The position numbers and the translations under genes are program-made. The notes under the pieces are model-generated. The model did not search any database, was not told where the DNA came from, and saw nothing but the letters and a program-made list of their open reading frames with translations. From IMG/VR virus record IMGVR_UViG_3300044960_000379, positions 1-52,784 of that record: a stretch of 52,784 nt of DNA. One strand, 5' to 3'. Below, in pieces: positions 11,195-44,972 of this stretch (positions are counted from its first letter, which is position 1; each line of letters opens with the position of its first letter). This DNA is from a virus. Lineage: Duplodnaviria > Caudoviricetes.

Positions 11195-12502
11195 ATGGCT
11201 GTCAACCCCACCATCCCGCCGGAAAACTTCCTTGATGAAAACGAGCCGTCCAATCCGTTGGCGCGCGCGCCTGAGCCGCCCGTCGAGCCGGAACCGCGAG
11301 CGCAGGGACAGGAAGACGCCACCGGACAGGAAGCGCCGGCAGAACCGGCCCCTGCGCAGCCGGAGCCTCTTGCCAATCCCCTAGCCGCCCCGGCCCCGGC
11401 GCAGGCGGACTCCGGCGAGTCTGACCCTCTGTTCGACCTTGTGCCGCAGCAGGAAGAAGCCGGTGGCACGTCCCTCCCTCCCGGGCAGGAGCACGTCGAC
11501 CCGGCGAAAGCGGCCGAGGCGGAGCCGGTCGACTATCCTGACATGGCGAACAGCCGCAACTTCGGCGTCGAGGACTATCGCCGGCTGCTCCGCCACCCGA
11601 ACGTCCAGCGGGGGCTCTACGCCATCCGGCAGGCCGAGGGCACGCAACGCTACGCCAACCCCTACACGACGGCGTTCGGCGGGCGTCAGATTGGCGACCT
11701 GTCGTGGCACCCCATGCGGGCGTTCCCGTTCCGCAACCCGGCCGGCGGGCCGAACGCCACCACGGCAGCGGGGGCCTACCAGTTCCTCGGGCGCACGTGG
11801 AACGGCGTGGCGCGCCGTCTGGGCCTGCGCGACTTCAGCCCCGAATCGCAGGACATTGCTGCCCTGCACCTCATCAACCAGCGTGGAGGGCTGCGCGCGC
11901 TCGTCAACGGCGACGCTGTCGGCTGGGCGCGGGCCGTCCGGGGCGAGTGGGCGTCGTTCCCCGGCGCGGGCTACGGGCAGGGCGAGCAGCGCATGAGCAG
12001 GATCGTCCGCTGGTTCAACTCTCCCGGCGCGGACGCCATTCCCGACTATGCCGAGATCGCTCGGACAGGACGGTTCGTCTCTCGCCCCAACCCCAACTCA
12101 GGCGCTGGTGCTGTTGCCCAGGTGCCCGGCACGGACGCCGGCACCTCTGGCGGCGGTGCCAGCGCCGCCGCCCCCCGCTCTCCCCGGAACCCGCTGGCCG
12201 ACAACCCCTACGACTACAGCGATCGGGAGACGGGGGGCGGCGACTACGAACCCTCGACGCCGCGCAACCCGCTGGCGGCCGCCGCGCCCAACTACGACCC
12301 GAACGTCTGGGACGAGCGGGACGAGCCGAACGTCTGGGACGAGCGAGACGAGCCGAAGGGCGTAGGAGCCGACCCGATCCCGCCGTCGACGCTCGGACAG
12401 CCTCAAGCGAGCCGCCGACCGCAGAATCCACTGGCGACCAACCCCGCGCAGGCGTATGCTGCGCGCCTGTCAGGATTAAGGCGCAACTTGTTCGGAGGTT
12501 AG
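11195..12502 (+). CDS. Virion-associated lytic transglycosylase (lambda R/GH104-like domain with disordered flanks)
   Basis: IRQAEGT...TAAGAYQFL..TW...DFSPESQD.AA...EWASFPGAGYGQ is the lambda R signature. Confidence 0.85.
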   Translation: MAVNPTIPPENFLDENEPSNPLARAPEPPVEPEPRAQGQEDATGQEAPAEPAPAQPEPLANPLAAPAPAQADSGESDPLFDLVPQQEEAGGTSLPPGQEHVDPAKAAEAEPVDYPDMANSRNFGVEDYRRLLRHPNVQRGLYAIRQAEGTQRYANPYTTAFGGRQIGDLSWHPMRAFPFRNPAGGPNATTAAGAYQFLGRTWNGVARRLGLRDFSPESQDIAALHLINQRGGLRALVNGDAVGWARAVRGEWASFPGAGYGQGEQRMSRIVRWFNSPGADAIPDYAEIARTGRFVSRPNPNSGAGAVAQVPGTDAGTSGGGASAAAPRSPRNPLADNPYDYSDRETGGGDYEPSTPRNPLAAAAPNYDPNVWDERDEPNVWDERDEPKGVGADPIPPSTLGQPQASRRPQNPLATNPAQAYAARLSGLRRNLFGG

Positions 12503-12503
12503 C

Positions 12504-13469
12504 GTGGCCTACGCCGACCCGTTTGGCTCGTTCATCGACGGCTTCCGGCAGGGCGAGGCCGACGCGCGCAAGGCCGCCGGAGAATCCAAGCGGTCCCGGC
12601 GCGGCGGCTCTGACGATTCCGGCGGCTCCGGCGGCTCCGGCGGCGGCCGGAACAACGACGACCTCATCCCCAACGCGCCGATCCAGCCCGGGCTCCGCCC
12701 CGGCGACCGTGGCTTTGTTCCGATGCCGCGTCCTCCGGTCCCGGTCCTCACCGACCAGAACCCTTCGCGCGGCTACGGCGAAACCGAAGGCCCGGGCGCC
12801 GATGCGCTTGCCCCGACGCCGTTTGATCGCGGCGGGAACCCCATGGCACCAGAGGACGGCATGGCCCCCGGAGGCGCGGTTCCTGCCCCCGTCGCGCGGA
12901 CGCAGCTGCAGATGCCCGAAGACGGCATGGCTCCCGGCGGGGCCGCGCCGCGTCAGGCGGCGCGGCTGCCCGAGGACGGCGGCGCGCCCGGCGCGGCCAC
13001 GGCCATGCTCCCGCCGCCGGTGCCGAATCCGTTCACTGCACCGGAAGATTTCGGCTCGCCGGGCGTGGCCCCGCCGAGTCTTGAGGACGTGCTCAACCGC
13101 CTGCCCCCGCCGCCGCCGATCCGGCCGCCCGACAACGTCGACGTGCTGCGCATGATCGACCGCGAGGCGCGCGCCGCCGGGCGGGTGCCGTTCTGGGTGC
13201 AGACCCAGCGCGTGCAGGTGCAGGATCGCGACCCGTTTGGCCGGCCGGCCGGGCCGCCGCGCGAGGTGATCCGCCGCAATCCCGACTTCGTCGAGCCGCA
13301 GAACAACGACGGAGCCTGGCAGTCGGTCAGGATGCGTCGGGAGGCCACGCTGCCGGAAATGCGCCGGCGGGCGGCCGCTGGACGGCTCACACGCGAGCAG
13401 TTCAACTACCTGATGCGCTACATGCAGGGCGATCCTGACCTGACCAATCCGTTCGAGGGCGTCCCCTGA
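12504..13469 (+). CDS. Putative internal virion protein, Pro/Gly-rich
   Basis: GGAGG RBS and GTG start; PEDGMAPGG repeats. Confidence 0.6.
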   Translation: MAYADPFGSFIDGFRQGEADARKAAGESKRSRRGGSDDSGGSGGSGGGRNNDDLIPNAPIQPGLRPGDRGFVPMPRPPVPVLTDQNPSRGYGETEGPGADALAPTPFDRGGNPMAPEDGMAPGGAVPAPVARTQLQMPEDGMAPGGAAPRQAARLPEDGGAPGAATAMLPPPVPNPFTAPEDFGSPGVAPPSLEDVLNRLPPPPPIRPPDNVDVLRMIDREARAAGRVPFWVQTQRVQVQDRDPFGRPAGPPREVIRRNPDFVEPQNNDGAWQSVRMRREATLPEMRRRAAAGRLTREQFNYLMRYMQGDPDLTNPFEGVP

Positions 13470-14032
13470 TGCTTTACGGACCCTACGCTTCCTACGCCAA
13501 CGGACCTGATACCGTCGCGCCGATGCCGGAGTGGCAGGATTTGCTGCACGCGGCGCGCGTCGACATGCTCGTGAAGGACGTGCTCAAGCGGGTCGAATCA
13601 GTGGGGATGGCCGCAGCGGCGGTAGCGGTGCCCGCTACCCCCACGCCGTTCGGCGACGGAGCCGTTCAGCCGCCGTTCGCCGAGGAGCCGCTGCAGGAAG
13701 ACGCCGCAGGCGGTGCTTTCGACATGTTCGAGCCGCCGGAAGGCGGCCCTACGCTTCCCGACGGCCAGTGGAACACCGGGGCCGACATGGAGACCTATCG
13801 CATCATCGGCGCGACGCCGTTCGATGGACCGATGGAGCAGCCCATGGAGCAGTTCGCCGGCGGGCTCGATAATCTTCGCGTGACGCGCGAGGCGATGCAG
13901 CCGCTTGAGCGCGCGATCAGGCCGACGTTCGACACTTACAGCCGGTTCGGCTATCCTGACCTCAAGGCGGACCCTTACGGTAACGGCATCATCAACGCCA
14001 TCCGCCGGATGGTTCGTGGAGCGCAGGCGTGA
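13469..14032 (+). CDS. Hypothetical (probable virion) protein
   Basis: TGATG overlap upstream and GTGA overlap downstream. Confidence 0.6.
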   Translation: MLYGPYASYANGPDTVAPMPEWQDLLHAARVDMLVKDVLKRVESVGMAAAAVAVPATPTPFGDGAVQPPFAEEPLQEDAAGGAFDMFEPPEGGPTLPDGQWNTGADMETYRIIGATPFDGPMEQPMEQFAGGLDNLRVTREAMQPLERAIRPTFDTYSRFGYPDLKADPYGNGIINAIRRMVRGAQA

Positions 14033-17000
14033 GCTACGTAGTTGGCGATCTTCCGATTCCGGAAGAAGACACCCTCGACCCGTCGGAGCAGCAGCGGCTG
14101 CGGCAGCTGCGCGGGCAGCCGGAGCCGCCGCCTCCGCCGCGTGCCCAACCGCAGCCGTCCCAGCCGCAGACGCAGACAGAGCCGCTTCCGCCGCGCGCTC
14201 AACCGGAACCTCCGCAGCCGGAGCCGCTTCCGCCGCGCGCTCAACCGGAACCTCCGCAGCCGGAGCCGCCCTCGCCGCAGCCGGCGCAGCAGGACTCCGA
14301 TCCCGAAGTCGAGGTTCCCGGCTACGAAGGTCGCTGGTCGCGCGCTCGCGTGCGCCAGCTCCGGGAGCTGGAAGCGCAGCCGCCGACACCGGAGAACATC
14401 GTCGCCTACTCGCGGGCGGTCGGCGAGCGCAGCCTCGACATCCTCACGCGCGACCCGAAGGACGACACCGACACCGACAGGGCGCAGCGCCGAACCGCAG
14501 CATTCCGCCTGCAGTTCCGGCGTTGGGTGGCCGAGAACGGGCTCGAAGAAGCCTTCGCCAACGGATCGGCGCGCGATCAGGAACGAATCATCCAGCAGTG
14601 GGCGGACAGCATCCACCCGCCGACCCCGCAGACCAACCGTCGCGGCGAGCAGACCGGGCGGGCGGTTCGCAGCGCCGAATCCCGCGAGCTGACTGCGGCC
14701 CTCGTCGGCGAAGGGAGGATGCCCTACTGGACGACGTTTGTCCCGGACGAGCAGCAGGTCGACGAAGCGGTCAGGAACAGGACCGCCCGCGAGACGAGGG
14801 CCGCGCAGCAGGCCGCGCAGCAGGCCGCGCGAGCGGCGCAGGCCGAAGCCCGACAGGTGCCGGCAAACCCTCTGGCGCGAACCCCGCAGGCCGCCGCGCC
14901 GCAGGAACCGCAGGCCGGGTTCTGGACCCGCGCGAAGGACGTCGCCGTCGAAACCATCGCCGGAGTCGCGCGCGGCGCTGTCGGGCTTGGCGACTTCGTC
15001 AATCGTGGGCTGCAGCAGCTCGGCATCGGTGCCGACCAGGCCGACGTCGAGGGTATCTACGCGCTGCTGGACGCCGCGAAGGGGCAGTTCCAGTCGGAGG
15101 CTTTCCAGCGCGAGTCGCGAGCGTTCTCCGAAGCCCTGCGCAAGGTCGACGGCAGCGTCATTGTCTCCATGGGCCGGGCGCTCGCGCGCGGCGACACCGA
15201 GGGCGCCCGGCAGCTCGCTCAGCAGTCCGGCATCGGCGAAGCGTGGGACCGCGCCGGCACCACCGTCGTGCTGGCGACTATCCTCGGCGGTGCCGCCGAG
15301 TTCGTCGCGCCGTTCAGCGCCGGCGCGCGAGTGGCGCGCGCCGGGGCCAATGTCCTTGCGCGGGGTGCGCCGCGCGTGGCGACAGCTGCGCCGGCGGCAG
15401 GCGGCATCGCCGCCGCTACCGCTGCTCCGACAGCGACGCAGATGACGGAAGTTGGAGCCGAAGTCCGCCGCCAGACCGGGGACAACGCGCGCGCCGACGC
15501 AGCCTCGGCCATGGCGTCCGCCGGCGGTGCCATCGCGGCGCTCGGCAACGTTCTCGGCGCGACCATCGGTCCCGGCGGGCAGGTCGCCCGCGCTCTTGGA
15601 ATGCGCGGGGCCAGTGCTGTCGCCGGAGAGGCCGCCAGCGCACCCGCCCGGGCCGCCATTGCCGGTGCCGCTGGCGCGGCGCAGGGCGGCCTTGCCACCG
15701 CAGGCCAGAACGTCAACCGCGCCGAGGCCGGCGTCGAGCAGGAGAACGTCACCGGGCCGGCGCTTCTTGGCGGCGTGCTCGGCGGTGTGCTTGGTGCGTT
15801 CCCCACGCGCGGGCGCAGCGAGGCCCCGCCAGCGCCGCCGGTGCCGGCGGCACCTGGCACTGCGCAGGCCGGCAACGGCGTCATCCGGGGCGGCGTCGCC
15901 AAGGCCGAGGCTCAGCAGTCGGCCCCGCAGCCAGTCCTCGCGCTCCCGCCACCCTCCGGCAACGCGCCCGAATCTCTGCGGCGCACGCCGGAGGGCGGGC
16001 TGGTCGACCGCCGCGCCGCTGTTCCCGGAGGGGTGGTGCCGGAGGATGCCGGCGTGCGCGAGCGCAACGCGCCGTTCTCGTGGAACGACCGGCGACAGGC
16101 GGACCCGAACACCATCTTCGTGCCGCCGACGCGCGCCCTGCCCGCCCCCGACCCCGACAACCCGTCGCCGAGGCCGCAGGTCGACATCATCGAGCGCAAC
16201 GCGCCGTTTAACCGCAACGACCCGCGACAGGATTTCCCCCGCGAGCCGGGGGTCATCTACGGCGAGCCGCCGCCCCGGAGGCCGGCACTGCCGGCGCCTG
16301 AGCCCGGGCAGGAGCCGTTCGTGGCGCGCGAGGCGCGGCCCCGCGAAAGTGTCGTCGAGCAGAACGCCCCGCTCAATCCGGCGGACCCGCGACAAACGGA
16401 CCCGAACACCATCTATCTGCCGCGCTACTACGGCTCGGACTTCACCGAAGTTCCTCCCCTTCGTCGGCGGCTCGGCGAGATGCCGCCGGAACCGCCGCCT
16501 GCGGCTCCGCGCGGGCGCGAGGTGCAGCCCGCCGAGCAGATTGTGGCTGACGCCATGTCGCTGCCGCGCAGCATCCTCACGCCCGAGGAACGACAGACTC
16601 TCGGAGTCGACCGGCCGCGCGTGCTCACGCCGGACGGCATCCTCGACGTCAGCGGCGACACGCCGAAGCTCGTGCGGCCGAACACGCGCGAGTTCATCAC
16701 CGCCAACACCGAAGGACGGCTTCCGCCGGCCGGCGTCAGCCCCGAGGTGGCCGCCCGCATCGTCGAGCAGGCGCGCATCCGCCGGCAGGTGGAGCTGGCG
16801 CGAGACGCCTTCGTGGCGCAGCAGCAGGCACGCGGCGTGCCGCGCGATCAAGCGTGGCAGAACCTCGCCCGCGCCGAGCAGGACGGCACGTTCCGGCGCT
16901 TCATGGAGCAGTTCTACAGCCGCAAGGGCGTCCGCCCGGCGGCTTTCGTCGACACGCCCACTGCCGCCGCCGTAGTGGGCGAAATCGACGGCCTTGCCAC

Positions 17001-20000: not shown

Positions 20001-20778
20001 GGGCGGGCAGATTCGACTCGCCGGAGTCGAGGCTACGCGGGACACGACCAACCCCTTCTGGCGGCGGTTCGCCGAGGCGGTGCGCGACGCGACCGGCGGG
20101 CCGGGACGCGGTGCGGACGTCAGCGGCGACGTCTACCGCAACATCATCACGACCTATCTCGGCGCCCCTGCGAGGGTCTGGGACGGCGTTGCACAGGCCG
20201 AGCACCAGGCCCGCCGGGACGGCAAGGCGAACGAGTTCAACCCCGTCGAGAAGATCATCCGCGACCTGTTCATCAAGGAAGAAAACTCGTTCAAGGGATA
20301 CTATTTCCGCGAGCACGAGCAGGCCAAGGCTCCGCTCGAATCCATGCGGCGCGCCTACTACGCCGCCGTGCAGGCCGACCGCGACAGCGGCGACGCGCGG
20401 ATGGTCCGCACCCCCGACTCTCGTGGGCGGATGCGCATGGCGTGGAGCGTCGGGCCGCGCCAGCGGGCGTTCCTTGAGGCAAACCCGGTCATGCGGGACT
20501 ACGAGGATTTCCTCCGCGCCCGCGCGTCCAACGACAGGCGCGAGACTGCGTCCGCCGGGGCGTCGCCCTACCAGCAGTCGAGGACCGCGCGCGAGTCCGG
20601 CGATCCTGACCGCATCCGCGAAATGCAGGAGCGGAACGAGGACCGGCTCGCCGCCGAGATTCGACTGTTCAAGGGCCTCTGGCAGGCACACGCCGAGTGG
20701 CAGGCGCAGGGGGCTAATCCCGACCGCTGGTCGGCGATCAGGGATCGCTTTCTGCCACCGCAGGCGAGAACACCTTGA
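14029..20778 (+). CDS. Large internal virion/ejection polyvalent protein (HExxxH metallopeptidase-like segment; LPD38-like C-terminus)
   Basis: 2249 aa, last gene of the late operon; LQHEIVGH...AAEVLAR motif; T.NF....LNPWFAF and LRPVVE..LNYNFAGNP motifs. Confidence 0.75.
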   Translation: MSYVVGDLPIPEEDTLDPSEQQRLRQLRGQPEPPPPPRAQPQPSQPQTQTEPLPPRAQPEPPQPEPLPPRAQPEPPQPEPPSPQPAQQDSDPEVEVPGYEGRWSRARVRQLRELEAQPPTPENIVAYSRAVGERSLDILTRDPKDDTDTDRAQRRTAAFRLQFRRWVAENGLEEAFANGSARDQERIIQQWADSIHPPTPQTNRRGEQTGRAVRSAESRELTAALVGEGRMPYWTTFVPDEQQVDEAVRNRTARETRAAQQAAQQAARAAQAEARQVPANPLARTPQAAAPQEPQAGFWTRAKDVAVETIAGVARGAVGLGDFVNRGLQQLGIGADQADVEGIYALLDAAKGQFQSEAFQRESRAFSEALRKVDGSVIVSMGRALARGDTEGARQLAQQSGIGEAWDRAGTTVVLATILGGAAEFVAPFSAGARVARAGANVLARGAPRVATAAPAAGGIAAATAAPTATQMTEVGAEVRRQTGDNARADAASAMASAGGAIAALGNVLGATIGPGGQVARALGMRGASAVAGEAASAPARAAIAGAAGAAQGGLATAGQNVNRAEAGVEQENVTGPALLGGVLGGVLGAFPTRGRSEAPPAPPVPAAPGTAQAGNGVIRGGVAKAEAQQSAPQPVLALPPPSGNAPESLRRTPEGGLVDRRAAVPGGVVPEDAGVRERNAPFSWNDRRQADPNTIFVPPTRALPAPDPDNPSPRPQVDIIERNAPFNRNDPRQDFPREPGVIYGEPPPRRPALPAPEPGQEPFVAREARPRESVVEQNAPLNPADPRQTDPNTIYLPRYYGSDFTEVPPLRRRLGEMPPEPPPAAPRGREVQPAEQIVADAMSLPRSILTPEERQTLGVDRPRVLTPDGILDVSGDTPKLVRPNTREFITANTEGRLPPAGVSPEVAARIVEQARIRRQVELARDAFVAQQQARGVPRDQAWQNLARAEQDGTFRRFMEQFYSRKGVRPAAFVDTPTAAAVVGEIDGLATRVGAAVEVYDGVRAMPIEYRQAFADGQTKAVTFTDQDGVRRVVVDRSMHADGTDLRKTLQHEIVGHVALPEILGATAYNNLMMQVSRLQAENSAVAQLYREVAKQYPGADPRTQAAEVLARVVEDGSLPKRSGVQKLRDSFLAAMRQAGFRGQKDGLMTGDQLQSLLATVRDSVNNPEAAWRLKEATAPLGSAGLGQQFERTVTGTRQTLWTRAAAFLWNENAPIIEAARTLRDVRGVQSGVVDQLFQAPNRINTTFDRFAVRHIEPIRKTMQEVADATGKSLDQVSVILDQIAAAKHGIERNEATWLLFAKVADRVEGERIALFRDFRNGKIDGKTLRDNLRAIVTDDTARTPRDEWRGYGATDSEIRQLQRALADDPAAQMVEARVWPMLRAFVDDLTDHQLKSGILTRAEVDLYGFANYVPARGGAADAPPLVINDIAGNYVTSHTAQGRGGQGIPERVLGELLDMSVDTARAFGNREFFRALGEAVALDVANTAAGRKPLYGREVESSNVISTAADDKIRFNIPKGVRPEDYQNVFRYIDANGDLRYLAITDPTLAAALRGVAEGPPRASKIAAAAQSVTGLQGRLLTSLNPWFWATQIQRDLIGNTLRMLTDYQAFGMTAKDVPTMTSGFLARFSREMLPLSDTWRYASLNADRGAQLRLIEEWKQSNDPKLRERAEFLEAGAIRFSSQFSATSEFRGTPLANVLMGTDNLARRGYDRLFGADGVLKTLAERMSTAQEALELGHRWAFYQTLRRHGMDPERARSETIQLTNFNQRSKVSRALNPWFAFSHTITAGADRAFNKGLWRNGEIPWRRVELPDGTVQRTVSLADVAKNLNYLRLGVVAAMGYAASAATMSLLGEQKDKNGVSLADKLSPESRMRSLFFPGTKPGQVFRIAMPDTEATLGLALGVAIHGLETGTMNQAEARVGLLNVAQRIFGPALKPRNDFPDGERGNPITSMTLGAVPTVLRPVVEGALNYNFAGNPLDRRGQVVNAPGGQIRLAGVEATRDTTNPFWRRFAEAVRDATGGPGRGADVSGDVYRNIITTYLGAPARVWDGVAQAEHQARRDGKANEFNPVEKIIRDLFIKEENSFKGYYFREHEQAKAPLESMRRAYYAAVQADRDSGDARMVRTPDSRGRMRMAWSVGPRQRAFLEANPVMRDYEDFLRARASNDRRETASAGASPYQQSRTARESGDPDRIREMQERNEDRLAAEIRLFKGLWQAHAEWQAQGANPDRWSAIRDRFLPPQARTP

Positions 20779-34610: not shown

Positions 34611-35459
34611 TCAAGCGTCGCAAGCGATGTAGTAGTGGTTGTCGCGCGTCCCCGCCGTCAGGAACGACGGCGCAGCGTGGAAATCGCGCGCGGGCAGAAT
34701 GTTAACCTCCCGGACAAAGCCGAACGGCGCGGTGGTGTAGGTGTCGGACGTCAGGGAGTGCAGCAGATGCTGCACGTATTCCACGCCGCACTCCGAAACC
34801 TTGGCGACGATGTCGGCCGCCGTCCCGCCCTGCGCGGCGGCACGCACGAAGCCATGGTGCGCCGGGCCGGCGTAGGCGAAGGAAGCGAGCATGAGTCGCA
34901 CCGCGATAGGCTGCGCCACGAGCCGCACCGCAAACGGCAGTCCCTGCAGCCGCGCGTCGGGCGAGCCCGGCTTGTCGACGCCGAGGGTGTCAAGGAGCTT
35001 GAGGATGTCGTCGACGGTCCCCTGCGGGAGGGCGCAGACAACGGCGGAAAGGCCGAAGTCGTAGACGCCGAGCCCCCGATCACCGATGGCGAGCGCCGTG
35101 ATGTCACCGCGCACGCGCAGGGTGCCGTCGACGAGGTTCTGTTCCACGGAGACGTCGTGGAGCGTAGCCCCGGCCGCGTAGGCAACCTGACCGCGCTGGA
35201 CGAGCAGCGCAGCGGAAGCGGTCGCAAACGGAACGGCCGAAGGTCGGCGGAAGTCGCCGGCCGCCGACTCCAGTCGAGTCCGCCGGACAACGACGGGCTT
35301 GTGGCCGTTCAGGAGGTCGCGCCGCCAGTCGGACGACAGCAGCGGGCCTTCGACGAGCATGTCGCACGTCGGTGGGCTGAAATCGGCCGCGATCTTGGCG
35401 TCGGGGTGCCAGAGTGCGTCAACCGGGCGCAGGTCAAGCGGGATGGTGCACGGGATCAT
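34611..35459 (-). CDS. Hypothetical protein
   Basis: GGAG RBS before ATG 35459; in the operon. Confidence 0.6.
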   Translation of the reverse strand: MIPCTIPLDLRPVDALWHPDAKIAADFSPPTCDMLVEGPLLSSDWRRDLLNGHKPVVVRRTRLESAAGDFRRPSAVPFATASAALLVQRGQVAYAAGATLHDVSVEQNLVDGTLRVRGDITALAIGDRGLGVYDFGLSAVVCALPQGTVDDILKLLDTLGVDKPGSPDARLQGLPFAVRLVAQPIAVRLMLASFAYAGPAHHGFVRAAAQGGTAADIVAKVSECGVEYVQHLLHSLTSDTYTTAPFGFVREVNILPARDFHAAPSFLTAGTRDNHYYIACDA

Positions 35460-35461
35460 GG

Positions 35462-36631
35462 TCAATCTCCAATTCTCACGGAGCGGCCCCAAGGGGCGGT
35501 GATTTCGGTGGTGAACGCCCAGACCACAGGGTAGCCGGGTGCCCGCTGCGGGAACGTGCCGTAGCCGTCGGTGAAGTAGACGAGCGCAGACGGGCGGGCG
35601 ACATGCGCGCGGACCCAATCGAACGGCGGCCGGAAGTCGGTCCCGCCGCCGCCGCACGGCGACAGGACAAGGTCGGAAGGCCGGTCGAACGTCTCAACCT
35701 TGTTGACGTCCGCATCGCAGTAGACGACGTGGATTTTCTCCGGCCGCGTCTGCGCGCAGAGTTGGCGAATGTAGGACTCGAAGCGCCCGAGCACGCCGTC
35801 GTCGATGGACCCGCTGGTGTCCACGACGAGGACAAACTCGCCAGCCGGCTCGCGCCTCCTGCCCGGCATGAGCGTCGGCAACTGGCTGCGCCGCGACGGG
35901 CGCGCCCAGCTGCGGTCGTCCGTCAGGCGGGCATGGGCGGACAGGACCACATGCGCCAGCACGCGCCGCCAGTCGACCTTCGGCGCTGCCACCGCCTGCA
36001 CGACGCGCTCGACCATGGCGGAGACATTCCCGACCGTCTTGGCGGCCGCAGCGGCGGAGATGATGTCCGCCGCCACCTGCGGAGCGGCGGACTCGTCGGA
36101 GTCCAGAATCGCGTCGAAGCCGCCGGAAACGTCGCCGCTGCCGGAGCCGCCCTGCGGGGCGGCAGCCACCAGCCGATCATAGATCGCCTCGGCGCTGTCG
36201 TCGGTGCCGACGCGAGGATCGAACAGGTAGGCGAACGACCGCATCGGCGCGCGGCCGGACAGCACGTCGATCAGGCCGCCGATGTGCATGGGCGGGCCGT
36301 CCTCGGCCGGGAAGTCGAACCTGAACCCCCGGCGCATCAACTCGGCGTTGATGACGAAATCGGCGGCCATGTTCCACAGGTTCGGCCAGCGCGACCCGCG
36401 CCGGATGTTGTGCAGCGTCGCCTTGTGCCACGCCTCATGGGCGAGCACGGTGGCGCGGGTCGCGTCGTCCAGCCTGCCCATGAAGGTCGGGTTGTAGAGC
36501 ACGACCTTGACGCAGTCGGTCGCTGCCGTCTGCTGCGACTCGTCAGGAGTCAGCGTCATCGTGGAAAGGACGGACGCCTCGAAAGGCGCCCCTCCGATGA
36601 GAATGGCCAGAGCCTTGCGAAGATCGGCCAT
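35462..36631 (-). CDS. DUF2201-type metallopeptidase-vWA domain protein
   Basis: TAATD, LAHEAWH, WNMAAD..IN; vWA MIDAS DTSGS, GGGGTDF, FTDG. Confidence 0.88.
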   Translation of the reverse strand: MADLRKALAILIGGAPFEASVLSTMTLTPDESQQTAATDCVKVVLYNPTFMGRLDDATRATVLAHEAWHKATLHNIRRGSRWPNLWNMAADFVINAELMRRGFRFDFPAEDGPPMHIGGLIDVLSGRAPMRSFAYLFDPRVGTDDSAEAIYDRLVAAAPQGGSGSGDVSGGFDAILDSDESAAPQVAADIISAAAAAKTVGNVSAMVERVVQAVAAPKVDWRRVLAHVVLSAHARLTDDRSWARPSRRSQLPTLMPGRRREPAGEFVLVVDTSGSIDDGVLGRFESYIRQLCAQTRPEKIHVVYCDADVNKVETFDRPSDLVLSPCGGGGTDFRPPFDWVRAHVARPSALVYFTDGYGTFPQRAPGYPVVWAFTTEITAPWGRSVRIGD

Positions 36632-36634: not shown

Positions 36635-37711
36635 TCACTCCTTGCGCAGGAAGTTGCCGGCGGACACGAAGTCGCCGTTGTTGTGGATGTGCCGAAGCAA
36701 CTCGGCATCGGCGATCAGCGCGGACCCGTTGGGCTCGGTCTTGACGCGCGCCATCAGGCGCTTGACGAACAGGCCGGACACCTCGGGGTGGTGACGCTCG
36801 ACCCACCTGAACCCGTTGCGGACCTGCGCGGCGTTCTTGGCGGTGCTCGCCAGCGCGAACGCCTGAAGCAGCGCCATGGCGAGGTTGTCATGCGCGCCGA
36901 AGCCATCCGGGCCGGCCAGCAGCTTCTCGGACGGGTGCAGCTTGGACATGCAGTCCAGCACATGGGCAACGCGCGCCGCCGCCTCGTCGCCCACCACGGC
37001 CGCCAGCATGACCATCCGCATGGCCGGCGACGAGGCGAACTTCAGGACGTCGCTCGCCCGCTTCCACGCGCGCGGCGTCGGCGAGCGAGGCTGCTCGGGG
37101 TCGAACTTGGCGTGCAGGAACTCCTGCGAAACGCGCAGCGCGGCGATGATTTCCGGCGACACGTCGTTGGCGAAAGCATAGTCGGTCCACTCATCGAAAG
37201 TCGGACCGGAGAAGCTGACCACCGCCATGCGGTTGGTCAGCGGACGCGGCAACTCCTCAACCATGGCCCCGGAGCCGGGCGGGTTGCACGCGGCAATCAC
37301 GCGCGTTCCGGGCGGGAACGGGAAGCCACCGCAGCGCCGGTCGAGGATCACTTCGTAGAGCGCCGAGAGAACACCGCGCGAAGCGAGGTTCACCTCGTCG
37401 AGAAACAGCATCACCGGCTTGCCGGCGGACTCGTGGAGTCTGGTCGCCTCAGCAACCAGATCGGGCTGGCAGCGCACGGCCGTGCGCGTGGCCACGTCGC
37501 CGACCGGGATGCCGCCGAGGTCTTCCGGCAGCATCTGACTGGCGCGCCGGTCGAGCAGCGCATAGCCCGCCGCCTCGGCGACGGAGCGAACAATCTCGCT
37601 CTTTCCGATCCCCGGCTTGCCCTCGACCAGCAGCGGCAGGTCAAGCGCCACGGACATGTGGATGGACTCCCGGAGTCCGTCGACCGAAACGGTATTCATC
37701 GTGATAGCCAT
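36635..37711 (-). CDS. MoxR-like AAA+ ATPase
   Basis: GKPGIGKS, LFLDE, AACN, PLTNR and PTPRAW motifs. Confidence 0.9.
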   Translation of the reverse strand: MAITMNTVSVDGLRESIHMSVALDLPLLVEGKPGIGKSEIVRSVAEAAGYALLDRRASQMLPEDLGGIPVGDVATRTAVRCQPDLVAEATRLHESAGKPVMLFLDEVNLASRGVLSALYEVILDRRCGGFPFPPGTRVIAACNPPGSGAMVEELPRPLTNRMAVVSFSGPTFDEWTDYAFANDVSPEIIAALRVSQEFLHAKFDPEQPRSPTPRAWKRASDVLKFASSPAMRMVMLAAVVGDEAAARVAHVLDCMSKLHPSEKLLAGPDGFGAHDNLAMALLQAFALASTAKNAAQVRNGFRWVERHHPEVSGLFVKRLMARVKTEPNGSALIADAELLRHIHNNGDFVSAGNFLRKE

Positions 37712-38500: not shown

Positions 38501-38952
38501 GGGCGGACTCCTTCGAGTCGGTTGGCGTCGTTAAGGGCTTCGCAGCTGGCGCACTCGTCGCAGCGCGAGCAACGCAGGCACCCGTCGCAGTCGGTGCAGT
38601 CCGAGCAGTCGGTGCATCGCCGGCAGCCGGAGCAGTCGGTGCAGTCCGAGCAGTCGGTGCAGTCGACACAGCCGGAGCAGTCGGCGCACCACGAGCAGTC
38701 GGCGCAGTGACGACAGCCGGAGCAGTCGGCGCACCACGAGCAGTCGGCGCAGTGACGACAGCCGGAGCAGTCGGCGCACCACGAGCAGTCGGCGCAGTGA
38801 CGACAGCCCGAGCAGCCCGAGCAGTCGGCACAGTCGGTGCAGCCGGAGCAGCCCTGCAGGCTGTCGAGGACGGCGCGCGCCGCCTCGACCGACCCCCACC
38901 GGGCGACCGACGCCCGGTTGCCGTTCGCGTCAGTGATCCATTTCGTGGTCAT
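38497..38952 (-). CDS. Cys-x-x repeat protein, paralogue 3 (35 triplets)
   Basis: ATG 38952 with ATGA overlap and GAAGGAG RBS; same head; tail NRLEGVRP. Confidence 0.85.
   Translation of the reverse strand: MTTKWITDANGNRASVARWGSVEAARAVLDSLQGCSGCTDCADCSGCSGCRHCADCSWCADCSGCRHCADCSWCADCSGCRHCADCSWCADCSGCVDCTDCSDCTDCSGCRRCTDCSDCTDCDGCLRCSRCDECASCEALNDANRLEGVRP
38671..38805. repeat. Perfect 45-bp tandem repeat x3 inside paralogue 3
   Basis: GCCGGAGCAGTCGGCGCACCACGAGCAGTCGGCGCAGTGACGACA at 38671, 38716 and 38761. Confidence 0.95.
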
Positions 38953-39323
38953 GGGCGGACTCCTTCGAGTCGGTTGGCCTTGGTCACGTTCCGGCAGTCG
39001 GCGCAGCCGGAGCAGTCGACGCACCGGACGCAGCCCGAGCAGCCGGAGCAGTCGGCGCAGTAACGACAGCCGGCGCAGTCGGAGCAGCCCCGGCAGCCGA
39101 CGCACCGGACACAGTCGACGCAGTTGGAGCAGTCGACGCACCGGACGCAGCCCGAGCAGCCGGAGCAGTCGAAGCAACCCGAGCAGTCCCGCAAGGTGGC
39201 GAGGGCGGCGCGCGCCGCCTCGACGGACCCCCATCGGTCGACAGATGCGTGGTTGCCGTTCGCGTCGGTGACCCACGCGATGGTCATGGACGTGGCCAAG
39301 GACGCAGTCATGGACGCGATCAT
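38949..39323 (-). CDS. Cys-x-x repeat protein, paralogue 2 (22 triplets)
   Basis: ATG 39323 after GAAGGAG; head WVTDANGNHASVDRWGSVEAARAAL; tail NRLEGVRP. Confidence 0.85.
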   Translation of the reverse strand: MIASMTASLATSMTIAWVTDANGNHASVDRWGSVEAARAALATLRDCSGCFDCSGCSGCVRCVDCSNCVDCVRCVGCRGCSDCAGCRYCADCSGCSGCVRCVDCSGCADCRNVTKANRLEGVRP

Positions 39324-39325: not shown

Positions 39326-39766
39326 TCAGGCTCCTTCGAGTCGGTTGGCGTTGGTCACGTTCCGGCAGTCCGAGCAGCCGGAGCAGCCGGAGCAGTCGAC
39401 ACAGTCGAGGCAGTCGGTGCAGCCCCGGCAGCTGGCGCACCGGACGCAGCCGGAGCAGCCATAGCAACCGGCGCAGTCCGAGCAGTCCGCGCAGCCGAAG
39501 CAGCCCCGGCAGCCGGAGCAGCTGGCGCACCGGACGCAGCCGGAGCAGTCGACGCAGCCGGAGCAGTCGGCGCAACTGCGGCAGTCGAGGCAGTCCGAGC
39601 AGTCGGTGCATCGCCGGCAGCCGGAGCAGTCGGCGCAGTTGGTGCAGTCGACGCAGTCACGGCAGCCTCGCAGGGAGGCAAGGGCGGCGCGCGCCGCCTC
39701 GGCCGATCCCCAGCGGTCGACCGACGCCCGGTTGCCGTTCGCGTCGGTGATCCATTTCGTGGTCAT
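39326..39766 (-). CDS. Cys-x-x repeat protein, paralogue 1 (34 triplets)
   Basis: GAGGAGG RBS and ATGA overlap; same head; tail NRLEGA. Confidence 0.85.
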   Translation of the reverse strand: MTTKWITDANGNRASVDRWGSAEAARAALASLRGCRDCVDCTNCADCSGCRRCTDCSDCLDCRSCADCSGCVDCSGCVRCASCSGCRGCFGCADCSDCAGCYGCSGCVRCASCRGCTDCLDCVDCSGCSGCSDCRNVTNANRLEGA

Positions 39767-41538
39767 GGGCAGACCTCCTCGCGCCGGATCAGATGCGCCT
39801 GCACGGACGCCGGCGCCTTGCCCCGTCCGGCGACGTGCAGCAGCGGCACGGTCGGCGCGATCAGGATCGTCAGCCCCGCGTATCGGCTGCCGCCGAACCT
39901 CACCTGCAGCGACCGCGCAAGGGCGACGGCCGTCGGCACGCCGAACCAGCCGATCATCGTCGCCAGCGCCGCTTCGCCGGGCGCGACGGGGCCGGCCAGC
40001 GCCGCCTCGACCGCACGCACGTCGCCCTTCGACGCACGCAAGGCGCCGCGCAGCCGATCCGCCCCCGGGACGTGCAGCCCCACCAGCCCGCGCCCGGCGA
40101 AGCGCGGACCGCGCCGCGCCTGATCCAGATCGCCGGAAAGCACCGCCACGGTCAGCGGGGCGGGCGGAACGGGCGGAGCGTGCGGATCGGAAGCATCGGA
40201 GGCATCGGAGGCATCGGTGTCGAGCAGCAGCGCCGTCCGGACGAACGTCTCCGTGGCCGCAGGGTCGAGCAGCAGCACTTCGCCGGACCGGACGTCAGGC
40301 ACCAGAGACAGTCCGCAGTCCACCGCCGGGGCAGCCCCGCTCGCCGAACGACAGAACACGCGCGCCACGTCGCCCCTGCGCGTCCCGTCCGCCGTCGGCG
40401 AGCGCACCACCGACGACAGAAGCGCCGGATCGCCGCCGATCATGCCAGCGACAGCCTCGCGCGCCCGGTGCCAGACAGTCGCCGAGGACACAAGCGAGTC
40501 GCCTCCCGAGGAGGCCGAGGACACAAGCGAGCCGTGCTCCGGGACCGCCGCCGTCGCAGCCGCCGCCACCAGCACATGCCCGCGCCGGATGGAGCCGTCC
40601 GGCATGGTGTGCGAGCAGGCCGGCAGCGCCGTGGCGAACACGTCGGACTCCACGAGTCCGACAGCGCCGCTCATGTCGCGCATCGTCTCGACGGCGACGC
40701 GAACGCGCTCGACCCGATCCGCGAGCGCCTGCGGATCGTCATCCCAGACAACTCGCACCATCCCGCCCTGCCGGAACCCATCCACATCGCACGGACGGGC
40801 GCGGAGCGGCGAGATGACGCCGCACCAGCCCATGGCGAGCGCGCCATGCGCGGAACCGTCAGGCACGAACACCGTGCTGGACCCGTCAGGATCGGAGGAG
40901 TCGTATTCCATCCCGGCCGCCACCAGCGCACGGATCGGCACGTAGGGACGCGACGACAGGGACGCCGGCGCGCCAGCCTCCCGCAACCGGACCACGGGGC
41001 AGAACACCGGCACCGTCGTTGTCGAGTGAAACACGCTATGCTCCGGCAAGGGCAAGGGCACGAACACGGGCGTGCCGTCACGCGGTCCGACCGCCAGCGG
41101 CGGCAGGACAGACTCCGGGAGTCCGAGCGTGATGGTGGTAGTGCCGTCTAGCTTCTGCCGGGCCCACAGACCAGGAACCCACCTGCTCAGCAGCGCGTTG
41201 AGCCGGCGCGCCGTGCTCGCCGAGCCATACCCGTCAACCGCGAAACCGACCACACGGGCATCGGCAATACACTCCGGAAGCGGCGGGATCACGCCGACCG
41301 GCCGCCCCGGCATCGGCCGGAACCCCTTCATCCAGCGGCGGAGCGAACGCTGATCCGCCACGTCGAGCCAGCGCGGACCGGACAGGCGAACGTAGAAGAT
41401 GTTCCTGGAGAAATGCGACCACACGATCAGGTTCCGGTCGCAGTAGAAGGTCACGGTGGTGCTGCTGCCGCAGGACCGCGCGTAGATGAGCTGCGGCTCG
41501 GGCTGGGCCGGACGGCGAGGACGGTGAAGGTTGGGCAT
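39763..41538 (-). CDS. Large early hypothetical protein
   Basis: First gene after the consensus promoter; GGAG before ATG 41538 (alternative start 41604); coupled to paralogue 1. No motif recognised. Confidence 0.65.
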   Translation of the reverse strand: MPNLHRPRRPAQPEPQLIYARSCGSSTTVTFYCDRNLIVWSHFSRNIFYVRLSGPRWLDVADQRSLRRWMKGFRPMPGRPVGVIPPLPECIADARVVGFAVDGYGSASTARRLNALLSRWVPGLWARQKLDGTTTITLGLPESVLPPLAVGPRDGTPVFVPLPLPEHSVFHSTTTVPVFCPVVRLREAGAPASLSSRPYVPIRALVAAGMEYDSSDPDGSSTVFVPDGSAHGALAMGWCGVISPLRARPCDVDGFRQGGMVRVVWDDDPQALADRVERVRVAVETMRDMSGAVGLVESDVFATALPACSHTMPDGSIRRGHVLVAAAATAAVPEHGSLVSSASSGGDSLVSSATVWHRAREAVAGMIGGDPALLSSVVRSPTADGTRRGDVARVFCRSASGAAPAVDCGLSLVPDVRSGEVLLLDPAATETFVRTALLLDTDASDASDASDPHAPPVPPAPLTVAVLSGDLDQARRGPRFAGRGLVGLHVPGADRLRGALRASKGDVRAVEAALAGPVAPGEAALATMIGWFGVPTAVALARSLQVRFGGSRYAGLTILIAPTVPLLHVAGRGKAPASVQAHLIRREEVCP

Positions 41539-41622
41539 GAGCAGACTCCGGGGAGTCGGCCGGGGCGACTGCCACGCGCCGTCCGGCCTGCGTGAATAAG
41601 GCATAACTGTGGCAGTATTTGA

Positions 41623-41651
41623 ATTATAGCATCATATACATTGGGTGTCAA
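41623..41651 (-). promoter_or_regulatory. Perfect-consensus sigma70 promoter
   Basis: Minus strand reads TTGACA-N17-TATAAT with an extended -10 TG. Confidence 0.9.
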
Positions 41652-42562: not shown

Positions 42563-43420
42563 GTGCGCAACACCTACACCCACCGTCTGGCGGAGGAGGC
42601 AAAATCCGCTCTTGGGAAGGACTATATCCGTAACTACTGCGTCGAAGTGCTGGCTTGGGCGAAGCTGGCGCTGGCACTGGACGTTCCGAGGGTCCCGCGC
42701 TCGCCGACGTCTCCGATGTCGTCGCTGCGGCGGCTCAACATCGTCCATCCGCATGTCCACGTGGCGCAGCAGGTTCCCGCCATGCAGTTGCCGTGGGGGG
42801 CCGTGGCGCGCGACGCGCCGCTCGGCCCGGCGACGATCTTCGTCTACCGGACGGGACGGCTGCTGGCCTTCAACAAGCTGCTGCTGGCCGAAGTTTTCGC
42901 CTCCATCGAGTCTTCGGTCGTGGCGGCTCCGTCGCGCCTTGCCAAGGCGCGCAACGCGGCCTCGCGGGCCTTCATGCGCACGTCCATCGCCGCCGAGGCC
43001 GCCGCTGCCCTCGGGCGGGTTCCCCCGGGCCGCTGGACGCCGCAGACGGACGTCCTGTGCGGCTACAACCTCCCGACTGTCGGCAGGATCGCCGTGGATG
43101 GTTTCTCCGCGCCGGGCGTGACGGCCTACGGCTTCTTCACGCGCGCTGCCGGCAAGCAGTCGGCCATGGCGCCGGCCGTGGTCGTGGCACAGACGTTCCT
43201 CGACGCCATCCAGTCCGGCTCGCTGGACCGCTGGACAGGCATGGCTCCGGCTGCTGGCAGGCTTGGCGCGCAGGCACCGGTGGCACCGTCGCTGCAGGCG
43301 CCTCTGGCAGACTCCGGGAGTCCGATCCCCATGCCGACGCGGGTCGAGGCCCGCCCCGATCCGGGCGTCGATGACGACCTTCGCGATGTGTTCGAGTCGC
43401 TGCGTGCCGTCGAGGACTGA
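42563..43420 (+). CDS. Hypothetical protein (lone rightward gene in the early region)
   Basis: AGGAGG RBS, GTG start, 285 aa, acidic C-terminus. Confidence 0.7.
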   Translation: MRNTYTHRLAEEAKSALGKDYIRNYCVEVLAWAKLALALDVPRVPRSPTSPMSSLRRLNIVHPHVHVAQQVPAMQLPWGAVARDAPLGPATIFVYRTGRLLAFNKLLLAEVFASIESSVVAAPSRLAKARNAASRAFMRTSIAAEAAAALGRVPPGRWTPQTDVLCGYNLPTVGRIAVDGFSAPGVTAYGFFTRAAGKQSAMAPAVVVAQTFLDAIQSGSLDRWTGMAPAAGRLGAQAPVAPSLQAPLADSGSPIPMPTRVEARPDPGVDDDLRDVFESLRAVED

Positions 43421-43558
43421 CGGCCGCCGCGCTCCGCCGCGCTCCGCTCCGCCGCGCAGTTCCCCGCGAGGAACCATAAACAACGCAACCCCGGGGCCGC
43501 TCTGCCGCGTCGTTGCCTGCATGGAACCATAAACATCGCCGCGCCGCGCGCGGCGATG

Positions 43559-43696: not shown

Positions 43697-43705
43697 GCGG
43701 GCGTG

Positions 43706-43735
43706 AAAAAACCCGCCTGGCGCAAGCCAGGCGGG
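43706..43735 (-). terminator. Intrinsic terminator (second of a tandem pair)
   Basis: 10-bp stem CCCGCCTGGC/GCCAGGCGGG with U6 on the minus strand. Confidence 0.8.
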
Positions 43736-43752
43736 CCGGAAAGCGGGCATGG

Positions 43753-43781
43753 AAAAACCCGCCTAGCTTGCGCTAGGCGGG
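43753..43781 (-). terminator. Intrinsic terminator (first of a tandem pair)
   Basis: 10-bp stem CCCGCCTAGC/GCTAGGCGGG, GCAA loop and U5 on the minus strand, just after the 43796 stop. Confidence 0.8.
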
Positions 43782-43795
43782 CTGGAAGGCGCGGC

Positions 43796-44689
<894 letters not shown>

Positions 44690-44753
44690 AGGTCACTCCT
44701 ATCGGGTTTTGAGCGGATCGCATGGCCGTAAACCCATAACCGACCATGCAGCA

Positions 44754-44782
44754 ATTATTATACAAAACAGCCGCTAAGTCAA
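44754..44782 (-). promoter_or_regulatory. Candidate sigma70 promoter
   Basis: Minus strand reads TTGACT-N17-AATAAT (an overlapping TATAAT is present) in an AT-rich patch. Confidence 0.6.
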
Positions 44783-44800
44783 TAACTACGTTACGCGCTA

Positions 44801-44972
44801 GACTCCGTGGAGTCCGGCATCGCCGCGCTGCGCTTTGCTGCGCCGCAGCAAGCAATGCTGCGCCGCCGAAAGCAGATGCTGCGCCGCAGCAAGCAATGCT
44901 GCGCCGCGAGACGCGGGTGCCGCGCTGCCGAAACGTAAATGCTGCGCTGCCGAAACCGGACTCCACGGAGTC
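44801..44972. repeat. 17-bp inverted repeat enclosing TGCTGCGC(C/T)GC repeats with about 20-22-bp period
   Basis: GACTCCGTGGAGTCCGG (44801-44817) and its reverse complement (44956-44972); internal units at 44836, 44856, 44877, 44897, 44918 and 44940. Confidence 0.85.

Follow-up and report, generated by a model that had tools for sequence, protein, structure and literature searches.

Few systems are known by which phages exert control genome-wide through one short repeated motif, among them the stoperators of the Cluster A mycobacteriophages and the start-associated sequences (SAS) and extended start-associated sequences (ESAS) of Cluster K. Stoperators, as in L5 and Bxb1, are tens of copies of one short motif scattered over the genome, some of them in or next to genes, with up to ~30 sites per genome and a motif that varies among related phages in step with the repressor (PMC6550527). 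SAS and ESAS, the function of which is open, are repeats particular to each phage that take in the Shine-Dalgarno sequence at translation starts, the ESAS being inverted repeats at gene starts with a variable spacer of 4-13 bp (PMC3203893). Here we describe a family of 21 palindromes of the form GACTC-N3-5-GAGTC that is dispersed over a viral contig, IMG/VR record IMGVR_UViG_3300044960_000379, of which the whole stretch (positions 1 to 52,784) was analysed and is called the window in the following. The record is linear (52,784 bases, 68% G+C, estimated completeness 74%) and represents an incomplete metagenomic podovirus, distantly related to HMO-2011 and Rhizobium phages. The palindromes are real and strongly selected signals in the phage DNA, and it appears probable to us that they form a selected, phage-specific cis-element rather than a methylation code.

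The window sites resemble stoperators in their copy number and in that the motif differs among related phages, with 21 copies in the window and 18, 13 and 37 copies of other families in its kin. They are unlike stoperators in their variable spacer, their mostly intragenic position and the one-directional gradient of their spacing. A likeness to SAS and ESAS is found in the early-gene copies of two relatives, G014 contig 11 and G001, and in the window sites at 38506, 38958 and 41544. However, ESAS arms are 17 bp long, imperfect and located upstream of genes only, whereas the arms considered here are 5-7 bp long and strict, and 18 of the 21 window copies are intragenic. As such, the window family as a whole was rejected as a member of the SAS/ESAS type, since just 3/21 sites touch a translation start (P=0.1); an association with starts is found in G001, in G002 and in the early genes of G014 contig 11.

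The C-boxes of restriction-modification controller proteins, the consensus of which is GACT-N3-AGTC-N4-GACT-N3-AGTC (PMC2175313), share GACT/AGTC half-sites with the window family, and the commonest form in G001 is TGACT-N3-AGTCA. C-box operators were nevertheless rejected, as the GACT..AGTC spacing in the window is 5-7 and not 3 and the sites are single, dispersed and intragenic; a family search found neither an HTH_3 C protein nor an endonuclease gene. Strict short palindromes, many of them intragenic and clustered around a replication landmark, are further known as parS, matS and SlmA/Noc sites, and the GTGAC..GTCAC arms of G001 and G002 presumably resemble matS. Those families are unlike the window sites in having fixed spacing, a known reader and positions on both sides of the landmark. 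What is unusual in the present case is the combination of very strict arms with a free centre, the mostly intragenic location at a coding cost and a gradient that is reproducible in four diverged genomes. Neither this palindrome element nor its gradient is described in the literature that was searched, supplements excluded.

Form and selection of the palindrome family

An earlier note on this DNA had listed 21 palindromes, and all 21 start positions and spacers were matched exactly (N3 in ten, N4 in nine and N5 in two copies), with no copy in the window at spacers of 0-2 or 6-30 and none in the reverse layout GAGTC..GACTC. That well under one copy would occur by chance, as had been estimated, agrees with a naive word-frequency expectation of 0.12 and with dinucleotide shuffles (n=100), which gave a mean of 0.26 and a maximum of 2. 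In 500 synonymous-codon shuffles, the mean was 0.98 and the maximum 4, against 17 intragenic copies, and a rerun with the revised gene list and with the intergenic copies held fixed yielded 3.9 copies on average and 6 at most, against 21. None of the 1024 possible arms is comparably enriched, the next ones being simple GC words such as CGCCG (22 vs 14.8). Because a single unit was duplicated to give the sites at 38506 and 38958, the family amounts to ~20 independent sites. The earlier note had named two outcomes that would refute the family, similar counts in codon-preserving shuffles and an equal enrichment of other pentamer palindromes, and neither was obtained. The signal is stronger than that note could know.

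The described placement was borne out as well. On the revised gene list, 18 of the 21 sites are located wholly within coding sequence, and the density rises towards 35-45 kb, with 18/21 sites in 20738-44972, i.e. in 46% of the window (P=2e-4). All three sites that had been reported to overlap ribosome-binding sites (RBSs), at 38506, 38958 and 41544, coincide with Shine-Dalgarno sequences. The palindromes at 44801 and 44959 each form the core of a longer inverted arm of 22 nt, the two arms being 91% complementary and 128 nt apart. The individual copies, including three with one mismatch, are as follows (ORF, open reading frame).

11408..11421, GACTC-CGGC-GAGTC in 11195-12502 (plus strand), frame 0
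16596..16608, N3 palindrome in the gene of a 2249-aa virion protein, frame 2
20015..20028, N4 palindrome in the gene of the 2249-aa virion protein, frame 1
23424..23436, N3 palindrome in the primase/helicase gene (minus strand), frame 1
25907..25920, N4 palindrome in the SNF2 helicase gene (minus strand), frame 1
30046..30058, N3 palindrome in the family-A polymerase gene (minus strand), frame 2; the encoded residues belong to a variable exonuclease-domain loop
32330..32342, N3 palindrome in ORF 31972-32406 (minus strand); an in-frame ATG lies 4 nt downstream, so that this is a possible RBS copy if the true start is 32325
34301..34313, N3 palindrome in the DUF3150-like gene 33733-34596 (minus strand)
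35266..35280, N5 palindrome in ORF 34611-35465 (minus strand)
36090..36103, N4 palindrome in the DUF2201 gene, frame 0 (LDSDESA), no indel relative to a 64%-identical homologue
36537..36551, N5 palindrome in the DUF2201 gene, frame 2
37428..37440, N3 palindrome in the MoxR-type AAA ATPase gene (minus strand)
37665..37677, N3 palindrome in codons 12-16 of the MoxR-type ATPase gene
38506..38519, minus strand, GACTC-GAAG-GAGTC at the 3' end (..RLEGVRP*) of the Cys-rich paralogue 38497-38952, doubling as the Shine-Dalgarno sequence GAAGGAG of the paralogue 38060-38500
38958..38971, minus strand, duplicate of the 38506 unit, here forming the 3' end of 38949-39323 and the RBS of the next paralogue, 38497-38952
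39329..39342, minus strand, one-mismatch copy GGCTC..GAGTC at a junction of Cys-rich paralogues, holding the RBS
40646..40658, N3 palindrome in gene 39763-41538
41111..41123, N3 palindrome in gene 39763-41538
41544..41557, minus strand, palindrome within the leftward operon's 5' leader, where it contains the GGAG of the first gene's RBS; a consensus promoter lies ~60-75 nt upstream
43310..43322, N3 palindrome near the 3' end of ORF 42563-43420 (plus strand), which matches no family
44801..44814, intergenic palindrome at the left edge of an iteron block, ~19 nt upstream of the -35 element of a leftward promoter-like site (44782-44754)
44959..44972, intergenic palindrome at the right edge of the iteron block
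52097..52109, plus strand, one-mismatch copy GACTT-CGG-GAGTC at the RBS of the gene starting at 52117, with G-U pairing on the sense strand

The arms are all-or-none. One-mismatch copies number 6 against 5.1 +/- 1.9 in second-order Markov simulations, i.e. chance level, and two of these six are the RBS copies at 39329 and 52097. Outside the strict 5-bp arms the consensus has a weak extension, C-N-GACTC ... GAGTC-N-G, with C at -2 in 17/21 and G at +2 in 15/21 sites; since positions -1 and +1 are complementary in just 7/21, this flank signal is a sequence preference and not a longer stem. The centre of 3-5 nt is free, except that its last sense-strand base tends to be G (16/21), which spells GGAG. 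The asymmetry of flanks and loops among the window sites is not significant.

With regard to coding sequence, the 17 intragenic copies mapped first occupy frames 0/1/2 in 3/10/4 cases and encode unrelated peptides, so that a peptide motif is excluded by sites in all three frames. The sites in the DUF2201 and PolA genes show no indel relative to homologues, and the words were therefore written into existing coding sequence by substitution. Selfish palindromes of the kind of repetitive extragenic palindromes (REP) or miniature inverted-repeat transposable elements (MITE), which are extragenic insertions, were rejected on the same grounds and because the sites are mostly intragenic. A family without any function, be it a by-product of mutation and gene conversion or a selfish mini-palindrome spreading from the early region, would explain why the copies at paralogue junctions spread by tandem duplication and why many early-gene copies of G014 contig 11 are identical over at least 20 nt, as under concerted evolution. 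Given that the intragenic copies arose by substitution and not by insertion, that they occur in all frames of conserved genes, that decayed copies are missing and that the pattern recurs in four diverged genomes, we regard this as the least probable of all the explanations considered. Among near-identical strains (contigs of four runs on 25000-44990, the best of which differs by ~0.3-0.8%), 0/40 of the listed differences hit a site, with ~0.5 expected and thus no power, and with 183 further differences beyond those listed.

The arms are GANTC words, and the earlier note, which pointed to GANTC as the CcrM methylation site read by GcrA, had framed the palindromes as paired GANTC sites and had offered a methylation-sensing timing code and protective or decoy sites against restriction among its options. 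In Alphaproteobacteria, GANTC is methylated and under-represented (PMC8919816). One can imagine that paired GASTC words, 8-10 bp apart from centre to centre and hence about one helical turn, are recognised by a protein which, like GcrA or SeqA, responds to the methylation state of adenines, and that they serve as a timing signal, the methylase being the host CcrM or the phage's own N6-adenine methyltransferase. The phage does encode an N6-adenine (32667-33365) and a C5 methyltransferase (30458-31606), and its cultured distant kin (portal identity <=29%) are mostly phages of Alphaproteobacteria (Rhizobium, Roseobacter and Pelagibacter phages and Puniceispirillum phage HMO-2011). However, GACTC..GAGTC at a spacing of 3-5 is the only pair found, with 0 GAWTC and 0 mixed pairs, and 18/21 sites are intragenic and not promoter-borne, so that the likeness to CcrM/GcrA sites ends with the arms, only one pair in one arrangement being enriched, outside promoters. 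GANTC as such is not enriched either (GASTC 91 on both strands vs 92.7 in a Markov model; GAWTC 59 vs 65.7), and the phage methyltransferase falls outside the CcrM/HinfI class. Furthermore, the equivalent sites of relatives do without GANTC, as seen in G001 (18 sites, 4 GANTC in the genome) and in G014 contig 11 (37 sites, 0 GANTC). Because these kin build the same architecture without GANTC in genomes nearly free of this word, its spelling in the window is incidental, and a methylation-linked role is very unlikely. The GANTC and CcrM/GcrA framing is consequently not supported, and we would caution that a GANTC-bearing repeat in a likely alphaproteobacterial phage need not be a CcrM/GcrA signal. 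As a separate observation, avoidance of GANTC differs among the relatives, with 4 vs ~78 expected in G001, none in G014 contig 11 and a depletion of GAWTC only in G002 (29 vs 57.4), which points to hosts that differ in their restriction or methylation systems of the GANTC family.

GAGTC is also the recognition word of enzymes of the PleI/MlyI/Nt.BstNBI type. The tail-to-tail GAGTC pairs could therefore be imagined to direct outward-facing nicks on both strands, as starts of nick-primed bidirectional replication, as programmed nicks like those of T5, or as sinks for a host enzyme. All-or-none arms are typical of such enzymes, a free spacer would be expected if two monomers act independently, a family-A polymerase of the strand-displacing type is encoded, and the genome avoids restriction sites in general (GTAC 0; CCWGG 46 vs ~240). 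Outside the palindromes, GASTC is depleted (49 vs 77.2 +/- 6.0) and GAWTC slightly enriched (59 vs 43.2 +/- 5.2). Yet this depletion of isolated GASTC is mild and ordinary (rank 43 of 476 words), which lends no support to the protective or decoy sites either; no type IIS-like or nickase protein was found by Pfam, PHROGs, NCBIfam or PDB sequence searches, enriching a restricted word would be costly, and each relative would need another enzyme. We hence consider a role linked to restriction or nicking just as remote, if not slightly more so, than one linked to methylation.

Relatives and the spacing gradient

IMG/VR contains at least 575 portal matches, and a portal alignment yielded 80 related viral loci and 23 genomic loci, for some of which whole records were then taken. 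The GACTC family itself is not shared: more than one copy occurs in 0/80 and one copy in 2/80 portal-flank loci, a single copy is present in 1/5 whole records, and for GACT-N2-7-AGTC (15 records), 12 virus records were within ~6 of the controls and three whole assemblies below control. A de novo search for hyphenated palindromes in nine genomes, whole or nearly whole, however, found families in four of them (the window with 21, G001 with 18, G002 with 13 and G014 contig 11 with 37 copies), which are listed here together with a smaller family in G005; no palindrome family was found in G003, G006, G009 and G012.

G001, 65.9 kb, 65% G+C, portal identity 54%: (GT)GACTG-N0-3-CAGTC(AC), 18 copies, spacers 0/1/2/3 in 1/11/5/1
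G002, 60.4 kb, portal identity 53%: GTGACA-N3/5-TGTCAC, 13 copies, N3/N5 in 10/3
G014 contig 11, 61.5 kb, 67% G+C, portal identity 44%: CAAACC-N4/5-GGTTTG, 37 copies, N4/N5 in 29/8 with 6-nt arms (spacers 6/7 if the arms are counted as 5 nt)
G005, 60.3 kb, portal identity 38%: a 7-copy family with a mostly fixed spacer (6/7)

Since the same architecture is found in the nearest complete kin, the element is a trait of this podovirus lineage. The kin are in part temperate, with a tyrosine integrase in G001 and G004 classed as a provirus. In a wider sample, 7/112 loci of at least 10 kb from these phage groups carry a non-trivial palindrome family at P<1e-6, several of them just upstream of RBSs, and such families are hence not rare in phages but not the rule. 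The PolA sites of the window and G001 were rejected as positional homologues, as they are 14 residues apart in a variable loop. Close kin of the early region were not recovered: viral contigs scanned with one protein at a time, the MoxR ATPase or the primase, gave no matches, and a metagenome scan with the DUF2201 pair returned relatives of <=52% identity only, the contig of a 60%-identical homologue not being recovered.

G014 contig 11 belongs to a 3.3-Mb assembly labelled Sphingomonas taxi, although binning with a host is no proof of that host. In this assembly, 33/33 perfect copies of CAAACC-N4-5-GGTTTG sit on the phage contig, and the motif is therefore, for this relative, phage-specific and not a host-wide word. 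The arm word CAAACC occurs 170 times against a control of 105, with ~50 of these on the phage contig. A host-wide word such as Chi, an uptake sequence or REP was consequently rejected in this one case tested, as it is not over-represented in the assembly.

The gaps between sites were measured in the four genomes, starting at the divergent control region and proceeding as the early operon runs. In each of them the gaps widen with rank, with Spearman rho of 0.76 (P=6e-5) in the window, 0.66 (P=3e-3) in G001, 0.76 (P=7e-4) in G002 and 0.87 (P=3e-12) in G014 contig 11, where the gaps climb smoothly from ~0.2 kb to ~4 kb round nearly the whole genome. The sites are spread non-uniformly in all four (Kolmogorov-Smirnov P 1e-3 to 3e-5); the 5' late genes (terminase, portal, capsid) are without or almost without sites, and in the window 1-11407 and 44973-52784 are free of them. 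Where the leftward early/replication operon ends, the gradient continues unbroken in the 3' part of the opposite-strand late operon, which fits either position on the DNA or read-through from the early promoter. In part, it tracks gene size, because in G014 contig 11 a copy is joined directly to the Shine-Dalgarno sequence of nearly every small early gene; the trend is carried on by copies within long replication and virion genes. The focal end lies in the following region.

41.6-45.4 kb, control region
41590-42560, non-coding and AT-richer stretch of ~970 bp between divergent early genes, with several CCACAATTG-type repeats as possible conventional operators
41623..41651, minus strand, sigma-70-type promoter TTGACA-17-TATAAT (12/12 consensus), facing the leftward operon, focal end of the gradient
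44745-44800, AT-rich patch to the left of the iterons
44834..44958, five ~20-bp iterons (ATGCTGCGCC..), flanked by the palindromes at 44801 and 44959
45077-45237, eight 19-bp tandem repeats, perfect or near-perfect, to the right

From its sequence, the arrangement at 44745-45240 looks origin-like. One could speculate that the sites are a positional device on DNA that marks the distance from the first-entering genome end or from the origin and that protects or organises entering or replicating DNA, for instance as docking places for a co-injected virion protein, by bridging as with ParB or MatP, or as hairpins on single strands after end resection. The smooth rise of spacing in one direction, genome-wide and across operon boundaries in four phages, is consistent with this idea, as are the two sites flanking the iteron block, intragenic copies that disregard gene structure, the encoded PD-(D/E)XK exonuclease and Hjc-like resolvase and three virion proteins common to the site-bearing phages, which relatedness alone may explain. 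On the other hand, the record is a linear fragment, searches of Pfam, PHROGs and NCBIfam found no ParB, MatP or like family, identical arms would be needless in a purely structural role, a Chi-like host word is unlikely given that the arm is not enriched in the relative's assembly, and a site per small early gene accounts for the gradient as well, at least in G014 contig 11. Altogether, we consider a positional device improbable.

Only marginally less speculative is the idea of a distance code in HMO-2011-related podoviruses, in which each phage would have its own strict mini-palindrome with a spacing that grows smoothly from ~0.1-0.5 kb to 3-5 kb as one moves away from one landmark, irrespective of gene and operon borders. 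Its reader may be a fast-evolving phage protein, perhaps arriving with the DNA, that reads the duplex or small extruded hairpins. If true, such a code could meter the entering DNA, shield the end that goes in first or give structure to the genome during replication, and it would represent a phage cis-architecture of a new class, not a motif of gene regulation.

DNA or RNA level and the candidate reader

From our point of view, the leading candidate, held tentatively, is a mechanism of dispersed operators or roadblocks on phage DNA. This was among the possibilities raised in the earlier note, of which the operator or roadblock survives while the dimeric protein is poorly compatible with a variable spacer. 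We infer that the reader is a protein acting on DNA and not on RNA, and that it is most likely encoded by the phage, with a specificity that changes together with the sites. Such a reader would bind the sites in the manner of the dispersed operators, or stoperators, of temperate actinophages, and its binding would throttle or silence leftward transcription along its full length, whereas the copies overlapping RBSs would additionally block translation starts. The sites themselves form a density gradient which starts at the divergent early-control and origin-like region (~41.6-45 kb), follows the leftward early and replication operon and fades in the 3' part of the convergent late operon.

Several observations weigh against this proposal. 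A spacer that varies by up to 2 bp within each phage suits a hairpin loop well but is unusual for a dimer bound to double-stranded DNA. In G002, all 12 of 12 N1 copies have the same central base on the same record strand, which points to strand-specific reading. Sites are enriched at translation starts in G001 (6/18, P=4e-4) and G002 (4/13, P=9e-3), and in most early genes of G014 contig 11 the Shine-Dalgarno sequence forms the centre of a site located 2-4 nt ahead of the ATG. No palindrome copy is found in the 970-bp non-coding promoter region at 41590-42560. The proposed models, the stoperators, are asymmetric 13-bp sites in one orientation with a known repressor, whereas the window sites are symmetric. 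A homology of the families across phages would be one of architecture only, the arms sharing at most GACT (window and G001) or GTGAC (G001 and G002) and nothing with G014 contig 11. To these points the results of the search for a reader have to be added: no DNA-binding family, including repressors, ParB-like and helix-turn-helix (HTH) proteins, and no nickase was found in the window by Pfam, PHROGs and NCBIfam, a search that covers ~74% of the genome and in which several ORFs match no family; no integrase was seen in the window, likewise at 74% completeness; and no early protein is common to the four site-bearing phages.

Some of the same observations favour an element at the RNA level, which is the main rival and, in our view, possible but doubtful. 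It would consist of short hairpins, with a stem of 5-7 bp and a loop of 3-5 nt, that form in the long transcripts of the leftward operon. These would serve as operators of a phage translational repressor or as targets or guards of an endoribonuclease, and thereby shut off or tune early genes, along the lines of RegA and RegB of T4 or of the start-associated sequences of Cluster K mycobacteriophages. In addition to the loop-like spacer variation in all four phages (implied loops of ~3-5 nt), the strand-constant central base in G002, the start enrichment in two relatives and the fixed unit of site plus Shine-Dalgarno sequence in the third, hairpins of -4.7 to -11.1 kcal/mol are predicted at 21/21 window sites, the copies at 38506, 38958 and 41544 and the one-mismatch copies at 39329 and 52097 contain an RBS, the G before GAGTC creates GGAG in 16/21 sites, and the ESAS offer a parallel, being gene-start inverted repeats whose spacer varies (PMC3203893). 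However, starts account for just 3/21 sites in the window (P=0.1), G-U-compatible variants are not favoured (1/6 near-copies as read on the sense strand, with the relatives agreeing on neither strand), strict arms with free loops are the reverse of most RNA hairpin operators, the flank preference comes without pairing, Rfam has no matches, and the gradient extends into late genes on the opposite strand. Taken together, a reading of the sites at the DNA level is slightly ahead of one at the RNA level.

Three further ideas were tried and rejected. A masking of internal Shine-Dalgarno-like GGAG is at odds with 203 unpaired vs 13 paired sense GGAG words, hidden internal starts after intragenic sites are about as frequent as expected by chance in a rough estimate (start codon within 10 nt in 6/16), and G-U wobble gave no consistent signal as to which strand is folded.

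As to the identity of a phage-encoded reader, family searches in the early regions of G001 and G002 found no repressor, ParB-like, HTH or nickase-like protein except for two matches in G001, namely a weak winged-helix match in a 361-aa protein and the integrase. Phyletic profiling over the nine genomes picks out virion proteins only (5635-6486, 9719-10225 and 10227-11192), which are present in the four site-bearing phages and not in G005, G006, G009 and G012, and this may reflect mere relatedness. PDB sequence searches with the methyltransferase, the 2249-aa protein and the 613-aa ORF 39763-41604 of the first leftward gene returned no DNA-binding protein or nuclease. In the protein Atlas, ORF 33733-34596 falls into DUF3150-like clusters, and nothing usable was obtained for ORF 42563-43420, the model of which has a predicted local distance difference test (pLDDT) value of 0.31. 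Since the arms differ between kin, the reader could be found by co-variation across hundreds of metagenomic relatives.

Gene layout and side observations

Genes were called by codon statistics and named with Pfam and PHROGs, and the gene list was revised later. The two main blocks are convergent and comprise the following features.

1-20778, plus strand, virion block, including an SU10-type adaptor and an internal virion protein
2101-3051, plus strand, major head protein
11195-12502, plus strand, lysozyme/peptidase-like tail protein
14029-20778, plus strand, 2249-aa virion protein with LPD38 domain
41538 down to 20738, minus strand, early/replication block
20738-23872, minus strand, primase/helicase
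25430-27022, minus strand, SNF2 helicase
28414-30246, minus strand, family-A DNA polymerase of the strand-displacing type
30458-31606, minus strand, C5 cytosine methyltransferase with PCQ and ENV-like motifs, overlooked by the codon-based gene caller
32667-33365, N6-adenine methyltransferase with NPPF motif, phrog_799
33733-34596, minus strand, DUF3150-like gene
35462-36631, minus strand, DUF2201 (peptidase/vWA) gene
36635-37711, minus strand, MoxR-type AAA ATPase
39763-41538, minus strand, first leftward gene, 591 aa, no family
late block start, plus strand, lysozyme, then large terminase (47942) and SU10-type portal (49390)

Read from its start, the early block encodes the 591-aa orphan, five Cys-rich paralogues, the MoxR-type ATPase, DUF2201, DUF3150-like, the N6-adenine and C5 methyltransferases, an HNH protein, the family-A polymerase, the PD-(D/E)XK exonuclease, the Hjc-like nuclease/resolvase, the SNF2 helicase and the primase/helicase, the exonuclease, the Hjc-like and the HNH proteins being assigned by Pfam and PHROGs. 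Scans of the window for tRNAs gave no matches, as did those with Rfam. Near-identical DNA occurs in runs labelled as hot-spring and microbial-mat metagenomes.

The five tandem paralogues (phrog_15341; 37791-39766, minus strand) have a conserved N-terminus, MTTKWITDANGNRASV, followed by dozens of Cys-X-X triplets with Cys at every third residue. Their genes are linked by the palindrome/RBS unit, and assemblies of variant strains break or rearrange there. Variation is also seen in the C5 methyltransferase gene, which has a low-complexity middle and of which 243 bases (30866-31110) are absent from contigs of runs X11 and X17, and in the iteron block, where a variant strain (run X11) has one extra 20-bp unit after 44835. 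Downstream of ORF 42563-43420, the stretch 43420-43796 is dense in direct repeat pairs of 46-53 nt and inverted repeats of 17-24 nt, which may be terminators or small RNAs. In the 2249-aa virion protein, the LPD38 domain is the sole recognisable part, and there is no PDB sequence match; homologues of 2100-2580 aa are present in G001, G002 and G014 contig 11.

Phages that carry DUF2201 and are otherwise unrelated have repeated palindromes of their own just upstream of RBSs or start codons, namely GTGCAATTGCAC in 11, CGCATATGCG in 14 and ACTCC-N-GGAGT in 7 copies (L085 4007-11591; L103 2431-11941; L159 3382-21112). Lastly, several short words are missing from the window or depleted in it. GTAC has 0 copies in its 52.8 kb, vs 238 in G001, 257 in G002 and 1 in G014 contig 11; CCWGG is about five-fold depleted relative to codon shuffles and has 0 copies in G002, and GGCCC and GGACC are scarce in the window as well. 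This pattern is a strong signature of restriction avoidance, and it differs in each relative.

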